This document shows positions 21,173 through 32,512 of a stretch of 64,000 nucleotides of DNA, piece after piece. The notes below the pieces were generated by a model. That model ran no database searches, was not told where the DNA came from, and worked only from the letters and a program-made list of their open reading frames with translations. This stretch comes from Callorhinchus milii (taxonomy: Eukaryota), in contig NW_024704742.1 in the NCBI RefSeq assembly GCF_018977255.1, forward strand, positions 19,346,001-19,410,000, given 5' to 3'. The position numbers and the translations under genes were made by a program. Each line of letters starts with the position of its first letter. The stretch's first letter is position 1.

Positions 21173-21244
21173 CTCCCCGGCGGGGAATTGAACCCCGGTC
21201 TCCCGCGTGACAGGCGGGGATACTAACCACTATACTACCGAGGA
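21173..21244 (-). tRNA. tRNA-Asp(GTC) copy 1
   Basis: 72 nt TCCTCGGTAGTATAGTGGTTAGTATCCCCGCCTGTCACGCGGGAGACCGGGGTTCAATTCCCCGCCGGGGAG; complete cloverleaf with A and B boxes; T9 terminator at 21162-21154. Confidence 0.96.
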
Positions 21245-21350
21245 CCACGGCGAGCAGCCCGAACACACAGCACTTACTGTCAGCACCAACAGCCTCAGCT
21301 CCTCGGCAGCTCCGGCACAGCCTGGACTCCCTCCCGGGGTGGGGGGGGGA

Positions 21351-21500
21351 TGATGTCACAGACTGCACTCCCTCCCCGGGGGGAATGACGTCACAGACTG
21401 CACTCCCTCCCCGGGGAGGGGGGTGACGTCACAGACTGCACTCCCTCCCGGGGGGGGGTGACGTCACAGACTCCACTCGGGGGGGTAGTGACGTCACAGC
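21351..21500. promoter_or_regulatory. CRE/ATF array upstream of tRNA-Asp copy 1 (4 x TGACGTCA plus 1 x TGATGTCA)
   Basis: Repeat unit TGACGTCACAGACTGCACTCCCTCC-(G)n; first site 107 nt upstream of the tRNA. Confidence 0.75.
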
Positions 21501-21524
21501 AGTCACCCTCTTGCTCTCTGCACG

Positions 21525-21960
21525 TCAACAACAACAACAACAACAAATGTCTCTCGCGGCCTCCGCGTCCCGGAGCGCTTGGCGGAGTTGGGGGAGTCTG
21601 ATCTGACCCCCGAGCCAGGGGGAGGGGGGGGCGGGGGGTGGAAGGTGGGAGGGTGGGGGGTGGTGGGGGGGGTGGAAGGTGGGAGGGTGGGGGGTGGGGG
21701 GCGGGGGGGTGGAAGGTGGGAGGGTGGGGGGTGGGGGGGGGGGTTGAGGTGGGGGGTGCGGAATGGGAGGTGATGGGGGAGGTGACCCTGAGTACCATCA
21801 AAAAGGAAGGTCGTTAGGCAGGGACTTGAACGTGTGGTGGGGCGGGGAGTGGGGCGGGGAGTGGGGCGGGGAGGTGGGGGTTGGGTGCTAAGGCGGAGGG
21901 ATTGATGGTGAGAGTTCCAGAGTTTCGGGACGCGTAGTGGATGAAAGCACGACCACCCCC
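21525..21960 (-). mobile_element. GC-shifted L2 3' fragment with an expanded G-rich tract
   Basis: (CAA)n tail on the plus strand; residual PKLWNS...LTTFLFD in ORF 21503-22048. Confidence 0.6.
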
Positions 21961-24162
21961 CCCCACCCCCACTCGGTGGAGGGGTGGGGGCGAGGGATGA
22001 ACAGGAGGCCCGAGCCCTCCGAACGGAGGCAGTGGGCGGTGGTCCCAACAGCCACCCCTCTTTTTCCTCAGCGCTTCCCGACTGCTAGGCGGGAAGTTGT
22101 CGCGCGACATTTGGCAGCTTTTGCCGCCTTTTCCCGCAAGATATGTCACTACACACCCCGGAACGTCGGGTTACTTCCCACATCACATCCCACCCCCGTC
22201 TGTGGCGCGCTCAGTAGTCTGGTTCCTGACCCACGAGGGGCCACGGTACAATGTGCTCACAAAGACCCATAGTTTTTTCTGCAGTGCACTGACCAACAAC
22301 TGAAACACGTGGGAGAATGATGATAATTGTATTTGGAAGCATTCATAGTATTCAGTGCGAGTGTTTAACTGTATTTCGATGTTGCGAGGATCGCTGTGAC
22401 CGCCATCATTTTCATGGCAAATATTGATCCGTCGCCATGTTCCATGGATGGAGTGACAAGGAAGCTACTGGTATCAGAGAGTGTTTCACTCGGCTCATCT
22501 GCAACACAAAATGAAAATTCATTGTTAGAAAATAAAGGACTTTGTGAATACCCTGTATTCAGGGCACAGCTGATGACAGCACAGTCTGGTACATCAGCAG
22601 GACCTTGAAGGGCCGACCAGTCACTGGGGGCAGGGAGTCATCCCACTCAACTCCTGTTAGCCCTGCAAGCCAAAGCCCTAATGGGTTGTGTGGTCCTAGC
22701 TGGGAAAACTTGCCTGACAGTGATATCAATGGTAAGCTATTTGGTTTTAGCTGGTTAGACTCCAGCAGTACCCCAAGCCTCTGGGGTCCCAAAGCCTTTG
22801 CTCTTGCTAACCTGCGCCTCATACTTTCGTATGAGGTAACAGGATGCATCCCTCCAGGAGAGTACACTCTCTATTCCAATAAATATCTCAGGAATTTCCA
22901 TATGTAGGGGGGATGTATGAAATTCTGTTTGGTTTGGATACTACTAACGATGGTGATGGGTTTCCAAATGTGACAGACACCTGGCTGACCAAAAACAATG
23001 AATTCCCTTGGAAATTCCCCATTAAGTTCATCTTGCAATAATGAGGCCAATTGTACACATCTGTACCATTGCAGAACATTTCTTCTTTCAGTTTAATGTG
23101 AGATAAACACAATGGGAATATGGTTCAACATGCCTCCAGTTAAACAACTGACAGGATTTTCTTCCAGCTCAGCTTCTTTCCACGATTAATTCTGGTGACA
23201 GAGGAATGGTTACTGGCAGATTGTTCCTGGATAGTTTAAGCCATTCTGGCAATAACTATTCCAGCTGTTTCCGACAATGGCTCAAGATAGGAATTATTTT
23301 GTAGCTCGTTGAAAATATAAGTTTACAACAGAAATATTCCTCCTGCTTAGTGGCAATAAATTGAAGCCACATTACATAGAACCGATGGGGACAATTCTTG
23401 ATAGAAAGGGCATTAAAGCAGGGAAGCAGTGTTTAAAATTATAATGAAAGCAGCAGGCAGGTCTGCTGTTCAATGTTTCCTGACAATCAGTTATTAAGAT
23501 AATAATAATAATCCTTGCATTTGATATAGCGCTTTTTACGTTTTCTCGACGTCTCAAAGCGTGAATTGACTGTATATTTGTGGGCGAACGCGACAGCCAA
23601 TTGCGCACAGCAATGTCCCACAAACAGTTATGGATTGACAATGACCAATTTATTATTTTTTTTTGTTTTGTTGATGGAAAGAATACAGTGCCTTTCACGT
23701 CCCAGTGCTCTCCATAAATGCAAGTTGCTGTTGATGGAAAGTACATTTCTGGTGTAGTCCAGTTATGTATACAGTGTGAAGGCGGTGATACCTGGACCAT
23801 CAACAACCAATTCCTTATTAAATAGACACCAAAACAATCCCTGTGACTGGCAACAAAGTCTCCTGTGGGTTTGACTGTCTGCACATCGACTGGAGCGACA
23901 CCTGCAGGAAGGAGAGCACAGTTACAGCTGATCAGGAGTTCACACAACAAAGCTCTGACACACAGAGGCGCGGAGTTCACTGTCAAACCGAGTACTTCGT
24001 GGCAACAAAACCACTCGGAGCCGCTGGGGCGACAAACGTACTTTTTATTTATTGTTGTTGTTGTTTAAAATAGAGTTACTATTTGGAGCAAAACCAAAAG
24101 GGAAAGAAAATAAAGCGGAGACATTGTAATTGCGAGAAAATCGGCCAAAAAAGTTGTCAGGT

Positions 24163-31079: not shown

Positions 31080-31870
31080 AACATAAGAATTAGGAGCAGG
31101 AGTAGGCCATTCGGCCCCTCGAGCCTGTCCCGCCATTCAATAAGATCATCGCTGATCTATTGTAACTCCACCTACCCACCTTATCCCCATATCCCTTAAT
31201 CCCTTTATCCACAAGAAATCTATCAATCTCAGTCTTGAATATGTTCAAGGACTGAGCATCTAGAGCCCTTTGGGGTAGAGAATTCCATAAATTCACTACC
31301 CTCTGAGTGCAGAAGTTCTTCCTCAACTCAGTGCGAAAGGGCTTACCCCTAATTTTAAGACTGTGATCCCTGGTTATAGTTTCTCCAAACAGGGGAAAAA
31401 GTCTCCCACTATCTATTAAACCTTAATAATCTTATAGGTTTCTATAAGATCACCTCTCATTCTTCTATATTCTAAGGAATATAGGCCTAAATTGCTCAAC
31501 CGATCCTCATAACTCATCCCTGGTACCAACCTACCACCCTCCAAGGTGAGTACATCCTTTCTTAAATAAGACCAAACTTACAAAAAACAATACTCTGGGT
31601 GCGGTCTAACCAGGGCCCTGTATAGTTGCAGCAAGACTTCCCTACTCTTATATCCTTTTGTAACAAATGCCAACATACCGTTAGCCTTCCTAATTGGTTG
31701 CTGTACCTGCAAACTAACATTTTGTGACTGGTGTACAAGGACATCCGAGTCCCTCTGAACGCTAACACTATCGAGTCTCTCCCCTTCTAAAAAAATAATC
31801 TGCTCAACTGTTTTTGCCGCCTCGGTGGACGACCTCACACTTTCCCACATTAGACTTCATCTCCCACCTA
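31080..31870 (-). mobile_element. CR1-clade LINE 3' fragment inserted in the fourth tRNA-Asp duplication unit
   Basis: LLQLYRALVRPHPEYC and NFCTQRVVNLWNSLP...FKTEIDRFL; CR1 3' end ggccgaatggcctactcctgctcctaattcttatgtt. Confidence 0.92.
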
Positions 31871-32245
31871 TTTGCCCACTCCCTTTGCCTATCTATGCAT
31901 TTTTTTTAAAAAATGCCATCCTCCTGTGACTGGCAACAAAGTCTCCTGTGGGTTTGACTGTCTGCACATCGACTGGAGCGACACCTGCAGGAAGGAGAGC
32001 ACAGTTACAGCTGATCAGGAGTTCACACAACAAAGCTCTGACACACAGAGGCGCGGAGTTCACTGTCAAACCGAGTACTTCGTGGCAACAAAACCACTCG
32101 GAGCCGCTGGGGCGACAAACGTACTTTTTATTTATTGTTGTTGTTGTTTAAAATAGAGTTACTATTTGGAGCAAAACCAAAAGGGAAAGAAAATAAAGCG
32201 GAGACATTGTAATTGCGAGAAAATCGGCCAAAAAAGTTGTCAGGT

Positions 32246-32317
32246 CTCCCCGGCGGGGAATTGAACCCCGGTCTCCCGCGTGACAGGCGGGGATACTAAC
32301 CACTATACTACCGAGGA
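32246..32317 (-). tRNA. tRNA-Asp(GTC) copy 4
   Basis: Identical to copy 1; T6 terminator at 32235-32230. Confidence 0.96.
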
Positions 32318-32422
32318 CCACGGCGAGCAGCCCGAACACACAGCACTTACTGTCAGCACCAACAGCCTCAGCTCCTCGGCAGCTCCGGCACAGCCTGGAC
32401 TCCCTTCGGGGGGGGGGGGGGA

Positions 32423-32512
32423 TGACGTCACAGACTGCACTCCCTCCCCGGGGGGGGGGGGAGTGACGTCACAGACTGCACTCCCTCCGGGGGGGGGCGG
32501 GTGACGTCACAG
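32423..32512. promoter_or_regulatory. CRE/ATF array upstream of tRNA-Asp copy 4 (3 x TGACGTCA)
   Basis: Same unit; first site 106 nt upstream of the tRNA. Confidence 0.75.

Follow-up and report, generated by a model that had tools for sequence, protein, structure and literature searches.

In snoRNA host genes, the intron with the small RNA lies between short non-coding exons, and the intronic snoRNAs, which have neither promoter nor terminator of their own, depend on splicing. Intronic tRNAs of C. elegans follow the promoter of the host gene (PMC4999229), the hosts treated there being conserved protein-coding genes with documented expression. Pol II occupancy near Pol III genes and interference with them, including specific mammalian tRNA genes, are covered in a review (PMC11346459), and a further case is the Polr3e MIR (PMC5358760); as far as the review goes, no tRNA-gene-specific regulator is known. 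The tRNA-Sec of Trypanosoma brucei is the one documented case of a Pol II-made nuclear tRNA, and the same source indicates that this is not so in humans (PMC2943599).

The type-2 Pol III genes 7SL, EBER1/2, VAI, vault, 4.5SH and 4.5SI have an internal A/B-box promoter. Upstream they add a TATA-like box, which contains no more than 2-3 G/C and lies at about -31/-24 relative to the start site, together with a CRE near -50 and, in some cases, Sp1 sites; mutation of the CRE cuts their transcription 2.5-3-fold (PMC7279448). This account gives CREB and Sp1 sites as absent from tRNA genes, so it offers no tRNA precedent for a CRE module.

We compared with these systems a locus with four tRNA-Asp copies in a window of 64,000 nucleotides (the whole stretch of DNA analysed) from Callorhinchus milii. 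Its features are as follows, a slash marking the putative splice position:

16432..17454, minus strand: first coding exon of the GASK1B/FAM198B orthologue; candidate acceptor with first exon base 17464
21173..21244, minus strand: tRNA-Asp(GTC) of copy 1, with T9; on its 3′ side, homology to copies 2-4 persists in diverged form and the acceptor is missing
21245..21350, minus strand: copy 1 spacer (73 nt, G-rich), ACA/GTAAGT (G of GT at 21277) and 33 nt to the tRNA
21316..21499, minus strand: copy 1 CRE minisatellite, four perfect TGACGTCA and one TGACATCA, period about 35 nt
23060..23503, minus strand: flank segment A of unit 2, the yardstick of duplication age
23840..23916, minus strand: copy 2 acceptor-like CTCTCCTTCCTGCAG/G (first base of putative exon 2 at 23901), with the last 62 nt of the near-identical tract
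24262..24274, minus strand: copy 2 GCTGACA/GTAAGT, either donor-like or, at -36/-28 relative to the tRNA 5′ end, a TATA-like A/T patch
24306..24403, minus strand: copy 2 CRE minisatellite, two perfect CREs (24341-24348, 24380-24387)
26062..26501, minus strand: copy 3 core with donor-like motif 26489-26501, tRNA 26390-26461, T5 and acceptor-like site 26128-26143
26533..26677, minus strand: copy 3 CRE minisatellite, four perfect CREs
31071..31922, minus strand: copy 4 insertion of about 850 nt right after the near-identical tract, absent in copy 2; a transposon fragment as judged by eye
31923..32357, minus strand: copy 4 core with donor-like motif 32345-32357, tRNA 32246-32317, T6, acceptor-like site 31984-31999 and tract end at about 31923
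32389..32512, minus strand: copy 4 CRE minisatellite, three perfect CREs

The first-pass annotation had reported four minus-strand tRNA-Asp copies with oligo-T. ARAGORN and Rfam call all of them (21173-21244, 24163-24234, 26390-26461 and 32246-32317); ARAGORN assigns anticodon GTC and amino acid Asp to each, and each scores 60.5 bits against RF00005, where the gathering score is 29. T-runs of 5-9 residues (T9, T6, T5 and T6 in copies 1-4) begin 11 nt 3′ of each tRNA. The four copies have the cloverleaf with internal promoter regions and the oligo-T terminator of canonical Pol III tRNA genes, and each reads as a complete Pol III gene ending at its own T-run. With an internal promoter match and a terminator in each tRNA, release from an intron is unnecessary; in this the tRNA-Asp genes are unlike intronic snoRNAs, and the small RNA without promoter or terminator that characterizes a host gene is not what we found.

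Upstream of each tRNA lies a minisatellite with a period of 35-41 nt and two to five CRE units per copy. The window contains 14 occurrences of the palindrome TGACGTCA where 0.29 are expected, and 0 of 100 shuffles reach this count; all but one of the occurrences fall within the four arrays. The claim of a CRE array in every copy therefore stands for these 13 perfect elements, with the correction that the proximal CRE of copy 1 is TGACATCA, a CpG-decay form. Counted from the mature tRNA 5′ end, the proximal CRE lies at -114/-107 in copies 1 and 2 and at -113/-106 in copies 3 and 4, and the CREs span -107 to about -250. The core CTGTGACGTCA is unchanged in 13-14 of the 14 repeat units, flank positions in 7-14 (mostly 8-13), and the CpG is intact in 13/14 CRE units of the arrays. 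Upstream CpG observed/expected ranges from 0.54 to 0.83, against 0.07-0.53 at the window's Gly gene and SINE-type tRNA-like loci; the tRNA-like match at 15523, with 1.09, lies above the tRNA-Asp upstream regions. Other G+C-rich arrays are found nearby, namely a 27-nt repeat in 18 copies (26884-27374) and G-rich arrays at 21617-21762. CRE repeats set between G- and C-runs resemble viral CRE repeats. A retroviral LTR with its primer-binding site was rejected on visual inspection, because the tRNA gene is complete and in sense orientation, not a short complementary primer site.

Between array and donor-like motif each copy has a G-rich spacer of 72-73 nt, in agreement with the GC-rich stretch of about 70 nt described earlier. 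Each copy has a single GCTGACAGTAAGT, four in all, in which the G of GT falls on 21277, 24267, 26494 and 32350, and the donor-like GCTGACA/GTAAGT lies, as had been claimed, exactly 33 nt before the tRNA in 4/4 copies. GTAAGT forms the sole A/T patch (ACAGTAAGT) of the spacer, at -36/-28; 8-mers with at least five A/T in the 105-nt spacer all start between -38 and -25, counted from the mature tRNA 5′ end. The segment 21245..21350 of copy 1 equals copies 2-4 except in a poly-C run.

The other half of the proposed intron is found in copies 2-4 only, where CTCTCCTTCCTGCAGG, occurring three times, reproduces the annotated 366-nt introns ending at 23902, 26129 and 31985. For the splice-site scoring proposed with them, a rough donor matrix and a count of pyrimidines took the place of MaxEntScan. 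On this matrix the donor scores 6.9, and the three GASK1B donors 5.9, 11.0 and 5.2 (range 5.2-11.0). The acceptor has 11/11 pyrimidines before CAG/G, the best within 16.4-33 kb in a survey with a threshold of 9/11. A donor and 11/11 acceptor of equal quality pair by chance at 0-0.6% of random anchors, a 10/11 acceptor at about 2%, and 1/30 control tRNA-like loci has a comparable pair. By matrix and pyrimidine count the splice motifs of copies 2-4 are competent; across the family the donor is present in 4/4 copies and the acceptor in 3/4. A second structured RNA in the putative intron was rejected: when 23700-24600 was scanned permissively with Rfam, nothing but the tRNA and noise below threshold came up, and the fold z of 23840-24150 was +0.53.

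How much of this recurrence is due to common descent? Homology between the units runs for more than 1 kb at 76-87% identity, broken by transposon insertions, and each duplication unit has private insertions. Flank A of unit 2 occurs only in the three local units, with 87% identity to unit 4 and 76-78% to unit 3. The four cassettes are, on this comparison, old tandem duplicates (paralogues). Identity in the core reaches 98.8%, 96.8% and 96.1%, against 87.5%, 75.9% and 78.8% in the locus-specific flank A, and a core 96-99% identical beside unique flanks at 76-87% has been homogenised. The contrast indicates that the identity of the module is concerted evolution by gene conversion, with selection possibly as a helper. 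The four copies being paralogous, their recurrence amounts to one event, and since all belong to one homogenised family the splice motifs show no independent conservation; the caveat of the first-pass annotation that duplicates are not independent evidence was well placed.

Near-identity of copies 2-4 reaches 323 nt beyond the tRNA and ends 62 nt past the acceptor, so the block end placed earlier at about 60 nt is right for this tract but not for the homology, which continues. Between copies 2 and 4 there are 0 differences over 261 + 62 nt. Copy 3 differs from both by five mismatches and two gap columns, all from the tRNA trailer to the acceptor, and equals them from donor to tRNA (33/33) and in putative exon 2 (62/62). 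Its near-identical tract stops at about 26062 and a microsatellite follows; 3′ of putative exon 2 each copy has its own sequence, be it transposon fragment, microsatellite or diverged flank. Copy 1 keeps 33/33 upstream and 72/72 tRNA identity, and its acceptor, putative exon 2 and the 3′ half of the putative intron have decayed. Despite a downstream identity of about 56%, its homology to copies 2-4 there is real to judge from the local score of 41 (shuffles 11.9 +/- 2.1, maximum 22 of 500). The tract shared with this old copy is asymmetric, at least 250 nt upstream versus about 50 nt downstream, and what all four copies have in common is the CRE array, spacer and tRNA, not the putative intron.

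Within the 0.99-Gb assembly the CRE/tRNA-Asp module is, by our searches, confined to this locus. A 561-nt query gave 59 matches (39/73 candidates scored), of which only those at the four local copies extend beyond the tRNA part, and the 20-nt CRE unit has 12 genome matches, 10 of them at this locus and the other two within the control rate. A CRE within 300 nt upstream was absent from all other tRNA-Asp-like genes found in 24 loci, and was seen at 0/30 further tRNA-like loci; among the 30 best tRNA-model loci of the genome, eight have a T-run and resemble real genes. The core as a SINE or other mobile element was rejected, as its flanks have no match beyond the four copies (39/73 candidates scored), and the same scored matches contained no processed copy of either putative exon. 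A search of metagenome contigs for an orthologous cassette gave three loci with GTAAGT 22-32 nt before tRNA-Asp, with neither CRE nor flank similarity.

Copy 1 is followed, 3.7 kb downstream, by the GASK1B/FAM198B orthologue, which is likewise on the minus strand and has coding exons at 17454/17334-16432, 13177-12947, 10072-9827 and 6841-6638, the first of which is a G+C-rich island (GC 0.68-0.73 at 16-18 kb). A candidate acceptor TTTGCAG/G, with 8/11 pyrimidines by eye, stands 10 nt before the in-frame ATG at 17454, and the last GASK1B acceptor likewise has 8/11. Tetrapod GASK1B has a non-coding first exon. The Pfam scan of open frames of at least 85 aa, covering the 40 of 113 that lie in 20.7-61.5 kb, matched only a LINE reverse transcriptase; a divergent protein-coding partner gene was rejected on this result.

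The reading we prefer, at a probability of roughly 0.45, is that CRE array and spacer act as an extragenic module, driven by the CREs, which activates the Pol III tRNA genes next to it. An ordinary Pol III tRNA-Asp(GTC) gene is present here as four tandem paralogues, and these share a CpG-rich module made of the CRE minisatellite ending 106-107 nt before the tRNA, the G-rich spacer and the A/T patch. CREB/ATF-class bZIP factors would bind the palindromic array, protect the region from methylation, hold it open and promote the assembly of TFIIIB/Pol III, in the way that a single CRE does at 7SL, vault, EBER and 4.5SH. The GTAAGT patch may serve as a TATA-like contact zone of TFIIIB. Pol II factors, perhaps Pol II itself, would probably be recruited as well, and a short spliced by-product might come from copies 2-4 without being the point of the arrangement.

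As in the type-2 genes of PMC7279448, an internal promoter is combined here with upstream sites of Pol II type, an A/T-containing heptamer lies about 30 nt upstream in a G+C-rich flank with G+C-rich boxes beyond, and the arrays carry the very CRE of 7SL-1. Compared with that account, the gene here is a tRNA, the CRE is multiplied and distant, and there is no GC box at -90/-60; the CREB/ATF site near -50 typical of the class is replaced by perfect CREs of which the proximal one is at -114/-107 or -113/-106. The GTAAGT position, measured from the mature 5′ end, matches the TATA-like zone only approximately. Several points weigh against the Pol III module: the lack of a tRNA precedent in PMC7279448; a proximal CRE at -107/-114, where every documented case has about -50; the decay of this element in copy 1; and gene conversion, which alone would hold the module identical without function. 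It also leaves the acceptor as hitch-hiking and coincidence.

Each cassette could instead be a CRE-driven non-coding Pol II unit in which a short first exon precedes a 366-nt intron hosting the tRNA. Transcription and splicing of the unit would set the tRNA free or, as is more plausible, tune tRNA output through competition with Pol III assembly 33 nt downstream of the donor. This model is possible but unlikely, the motifs that back it being of a kind that chance brings together at about 0.3-3% of anchors or control loci. The array is CpG- and CRE-rich like a Pol II promoter, the donor falls within the GASK1B range on the rough matrix, the acceptor is unique in 16.4-33 kb, and the differences of copy 3 spare both donor-to-tRNA segment and putative exon 2. 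The nematode and mammalian cases cited above give it precedents: as in nematodes, the tRNA stands between a sense-strand donor and acceptor downstream of a Pol II-type promoter and otherwise identical tRNA copies differ in context, and short non-coding exons would flank a small-RNA intron as in snoRNA host genes. The nematode hosts are, however, expressed protein-coding genes, whereas the host here would be a putative two-exon non-coding unit, absent in 1/4 copies. Copy 1, with no acceptor or putative exon 2, is still 100% identical in upstream module and tRNA; the first exon would have at most about 73 nt if the start follows the last CRE; and the tRNA's own promoter match and terminator, the private sequence after putative exon 2, the homogenised identity of copies 2-4 and the lack of processed copies among the scored matches (39/73 candidates) all count against it. 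Both upstream motifs can be read as Pol III elements in the terms of PMC7279448. Pol II-type elements directly upstream of a Pol III gene, shared with the cases in PMC11346459 and PMC5358760, make competition or chromatin opening possible, but those accounts describe no dedicated repeated factor-site array and no donor 33 nt from the Pol III gene. The T. brucei tRNA-Sec, as described in PMC2943599, sits in a polycistronic unit, unlike tRNA-Asp here, for which Pol II dependence is hypothetical.

The first exon could also belong to the same-strand protein-coding gene. CRE array and short exon would then be one or several alternative promoters and non-coding first exons of GASK1B, the tRNAs would lie in its first intron, and the acceptor of copies 2-4 would mark an optional small exon or go unused. 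The strand and distance of the gene fit, as do the donor kept by copy 1 with no nearby acceptor, the 8/11 site before the ATG, equal to the last GASK1B acceptor, the tetrapod first exon and the absence of another protein-coding gene among the frames scanned. Yet the G+C-rich coding exon could carry its own promoter, 8/11 is under the survey threshold and it would be unusual for one gene to have four promoters in tandem; we hold this reading to be rather improbable. It is doubtful, too, that there is no function beyond the tRNA, with the CRE repeats a young G+C-rich minisatellite expanded by slippage and passed along by gene conversion between tRNA paralogues, and the splice-like motifs coincidental. 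The otherwise identical copies differ in repeat number (2 to 5), neighbouring G+C-rich arrays expand freely, one CRE has already decayed at its CpG, gene conversion is demonstrably active and a donor/acceptor pair of similar quality turns up at some 2-3% of control loci or arbitrary anchors; against this, no part of the 14 units, the oldest distal ones included, varies less than the 11-nt CRE core, nearly every CpG is intact and the tract shared with copy 1 is asymmetric. With the donor so close to the tRNA, initiating Pol II and TFIIIB/Pol III would compete for the same ~100 nt, and a signal-responsive two-polymerase switch may be imagined, a cAMP/ATF-driven Pol II unit against TFIIIB/Pol III, the 366-nt intron also yielding tRNA by RNase P/Z. 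We consider it quite improbable; if true, the supply of one tRNA species would depend on a second-messenger pathway.

This is one lineage-specific four-copy locus whose copies are not independent. In the general view, animal tRNA genes have no factor sites upstream, and the account of PMC7279448 says this explicitly; the perfect, multiplied CRE stands in contrast to it. The locus bears on the question of why identical tRNA genes differ in expression. As a simple natural test case it could show whether Pol III output can be governed by a classical Pol II enhancer element, or whether the polymerases compete at one start region.

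The four tRNA-Asp genes that the first-pass annotation had placed on the minus strand were recovered concordantly by ARAGORN and Rfam as tRNA-Asp(GTC), and their sequences are identical to one another.

tRNA-Asp(GTC) genes called by ARAGORN and Rfam
21173-21244, minus, copy 1
24163-24234, minus, copy 2
26390-26461, minus, copy 3
32246-32317, minus, copy 4

Each tRNA is followed by a T-run (T5-T9) starting 11 nt 3′ of it and preceded by a CRE array, whose proximal CRE ends 106-107 nt upstream. A G-rich spacer of 72-73 nt adjoins this CRE on the tRNA side. The donor-like GCTGACA|GTAAGT occurs in all four copies, with the G of its GT exactly 33 nt upstream of the tRNA; the acceptor-like CTCTCCTTCCTGCAG|G is present in copies 2-4 only, with a donor-to-acceptor interval of 366 nt. 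The annotation had noted the CRE arrays, a GC-rich stretch of about 70 nt, the donor at 33 nt, the oligo-T and the 366-nt spacing. Since these checks all agree, its description is accurate and its observation is confirmed.

How should this cassette be read? In the 64-kb window, where 0.29 occurrences of the palindrome TGACGTCA would be expected, 14 are present, 13 of them in the arrays upstream of the four tRNA-Asp genes. The arrays are minisatellites with a period of 35-41 nt, comprising two CRE units in copy 2, four in copy 3, three in copy 4 and 4+1 in copy 1, where the additional unit is the variant TGACATCA. That they are a neutral minisatellite carried along by gene conversion seems unlikely to us. 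Positions of the 11-nt core CTGTGACGTCA are unchanged in 13-14 of 14 units and the CpG is kept in 13 of 14, whereas most flank positions are kept in only 8-13 of 14. The CpG observed/expected ratio is 0.54-0.83 upstream of the tRNA-Asp copies and 0.07-0.53 upstream of the window's Gly gene and SINE-type tRNA-like loci; at the tRNA-like match at 15523 it reaches 1.09, above the tRNA-Asp copies. Core invariance, CpG survival and the upstream ratio favour a Pol III reading, to which we give a probability of about 45%: the upstream part of the cassette would be an extragenic module that, driven by its CREs, activates Pol III tRNA genes.

About 200 nt upstream of the copy 3 array lies a 27-nt tandem repeat (26884-27374; 18.2 copies, 97% matches), every unit of which has a GGGGCGG/GGGGCGA motif that we take to be GC-box-like. 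A single diverged sequence resembling its unit is found upstream of copies 1 and 4.

According to an excerpt of PMC7279448, 7SL, EBER1/2, VAI, vault, 4.5SH and 4.5SI are genes that combine internal A/B-box promoters with a TATA-like box around -31/-24 (e.g., TTCAAGTA or TTCTAGTA) and a CREB/ATF site near -50 (TGACGTCA in 7SL-1), with Sp1 sites at -90/-60 in some of them; CRE mutation lowers their transcription 2.5-3-fold. The cassette shares the palindrome TGACGTCA with 7SL-1. All 8-mers with at least five A/T in its 105-nt spacer have their start between -38 and -25 relative to the mature 5′ end, centred on ACAGTAAGT; given a leader of a few nucleotides, this patch would be a TATA-like zone, falling where the 7SL/EBER/vault/4.5SH class has its own. 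However, the CRE of that class lies near -50, while the cassette CREs stand at -107 and beyond. This distance weakens the Pol III reading, as does the statement in the same excerpt that CREB and Sp1 sites are absent from tRNA genes.

In a genome search with a 561-nt cassette query, only the four local copies matched outside the tRNA part (59 matches, from the 39 scored among 73 candidates). The 20-nt CRE unit has 12 matches in the genome, ten of them at the cassette locus; the other two, with two mismatches each, are within the control rate. TGACGTCA was absent within 300 nt upstream in all 24 other loci with a tRNA-Asp-like gene, and upstream of all 30 further high-scoring tRNA-model loci used as controls (eight with a T-run look like real genes, the others like SINE heads). 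A metagenome scan for orthologous cassettes gave three loci, all unrelated.

Relations between the copies were traced by self-comparison of the window. The units are colinear: core, about 160 nt, segment A, segment B.

Identity between units in the core (near-identical tract) and segment A (locus-specific flank)
Units 2 and 4: core 98.8% over 566 nt; segment A 87.5%
Units 2 and 3: core 96.8% over 570 nt; segment A 75.9%
Units 3 and 4: core 96.1% over 597 nt; segment A 78.8%

The near-identical block described earlier does end 62 nt past the acceptor, but the duplication itself is larger and older. Segment A matches three local places only in the 0.99-Gb assembly (40 scored out of 3,766 first-look candidates); segment B is an interspersed repeat with thousands of candidates there, and so is a 170-nt piece found in unit 2 only. 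All six copy pairs are identical both across the 33 nt between donor and tRNA and across the 72-nt tRNA itself. Between trailer and acceptor (261 nt) copies 2 and 4 show no differences, nor do they over the next 62 nt; copy 3 departs from them by five mismatches and two gap columns, every one of which lies in the trailer-to-acceptor stretch. Downstream of the tRNA copy 1 has about 56% identity to the others, a homology that is real (local score 41 vs. 11.9 +/- 2.1 in 500 shuffles, maximum 22), and CRE array, spacer and tRNA form the only tract common to all four copies at 100%. Judged from sequence, the core/flank identity pattern and the divergence of copy 1 mark the cassette as an old tandem duplication with its core under homogenisation. 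The recurrence of splice motifs is therefore no evidence of selection, which bears out the original caveat that duplicates are not independent.

In unit 4 the core is directly followed by about 850 nt of inserted sequence, in unit 3 by a microsatellite together with other sequence. These private insertions (26062 in unit 3; 31923 in unit 4) lie no more than about 25 nt from one common point (23834-23840 in unit 2), which coincides exactly with the end of the near-identical tract; this is either a conversion tract bounded by insertions or an insertion hot spot.

The first-pass annotation had proposed a spliced Pol II unit around each tRNA-Asp. Donors were scored with an approximate matrix and acceptors by pyrimidine count at -15 to -5. 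On this approximate matrix (maximum 12.6) the cassette donor scores 6.9 and the donors of the neighbouring gene GASK1B 5.9, 11.0 and 5.2; the cassette acceptor, with 11/11 pyrimidines, is the sole such site in 16.4-33 kb. Among random anchors in the window, cassettes masked, 12-13% had a donor at least as good within 120 nt upstream, 16-17% an acceptor of 10/11 pyrimidines or better at 50-600 nt downstream, about 2% both, and 0-0.6% such a donor with an 11/11 acceptor. The 30 control loci gave three such donors, four such acceptors and one pair. By these scores both splice sites are competent and a pair of this kind is uncommon, which speaks for the putative spliced unit, but the pair is a single event picked after the fact, and the pattern of copy 1 makes the putative intron and acceptor dispensable in one copy. 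An Rfam scan (23700-24600) and a fold (23840-24150) revealed nothing further in the putative 366-nt intron. We consider such a unit doubtful.

The putative cassette exons could alternatively be leader exons of a GASK1B/FAM198B orthologue on the same strand (Pfam PF15051, E = 4.6e-22; homologues named Golgi-associated kinase 1B), 3.7 kb upstream of which copy 1 lies.

GASK1B coding exons
17454/17334-16432, minus, exon 1
13177-12947, minus, exon 2
10072-9827, minus, exon 3
6841-6638, minus, exon 4

This suggestion comes from the sequence TTTGCAG|G, which resembles an acceptor (8/11 pyrimidines, counted by eye) and lies 10 nt upstream of the in-frame ATG; such putative alternative leaders appear quite improbable. 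A scan of 40 of 113 open frames detected no other coding gene in the 20.7-61.5 kb stretch, its one match being to a LINE reverse transcriptase. The first exon of GASK1B contains a 24-nt repeat (16572-16672, 4.2 copies) encoding a Gly/Ala/Arg-rich repeat, and a (CA/CT)n tract (16069-16422) directly follows its donor. Directly upstream of the coding exon is a 500-nt purine-rich GGAGAG-type low-complexity tract (17520-18019, minus).

In the window, only the four Asp genes and Gly-GCC (36525-36595, minus) are real tRNA genes. About 75 nt downstream of Gly-GCC, on the same strand, starts an open frame of 410 aa that encodes a reverse-transcriptase domain (35220-36449, minus; PF00078, E = 2.2e-31). 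The sites called as "tRNA-Ala" belong to a tRNA-derived SINE family, whose heads they form; the 3′ flank …CTTGGGCAAGTTTCCTTACTCCACAC… is common to most, most have no T-run following the tRNA-like part, and several have poor acceptor stems.

SINE heads called as tRNA-Ala
15523-15585
49873-49945
52321-52392
54836-54907
59827-59897
60593-60662

Elsewhere, at G000:C821:14463-20173 (L006-L012, L020), at least 20 tRNA-Asp-like genes form a tandem array whose period is roughly 310-620 nt and in which near-canonical copies (two substitutions) alternate with diverged ones (81-84% identity); its A/T-rich upstream flank is quite unlike the cassette. At G000:C19:1749332-1752404 (L044), a tRNA-Lys(TTT) gene has a CpG-rich upstream region of about 400 nt (GC 0.64, CpG observed/expected 1.37) with three copies of CAAAGATGG(C/T)G, presumably YY1-like, a TGACGC half-CRE around -40, CTTATAG around -31 and, at -22, a chance donor-like CAG|GTGAGC.

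The readings of the cassette are partly compatible with one another: CRE-bound factors might open chromatin for Pol III and fire Pol II as well. PMC11346459 describes Pol II near tRNA genes, plus gene-specific interference, and PMC4999229 nematode intronic tRNAs under host-promoter control. Either functional reading, if true, would fall within known categories rather than form a new one. Arrays of Pol II-type factor motifs beside tRNA genes may be a more general trait of the C. milii genome.
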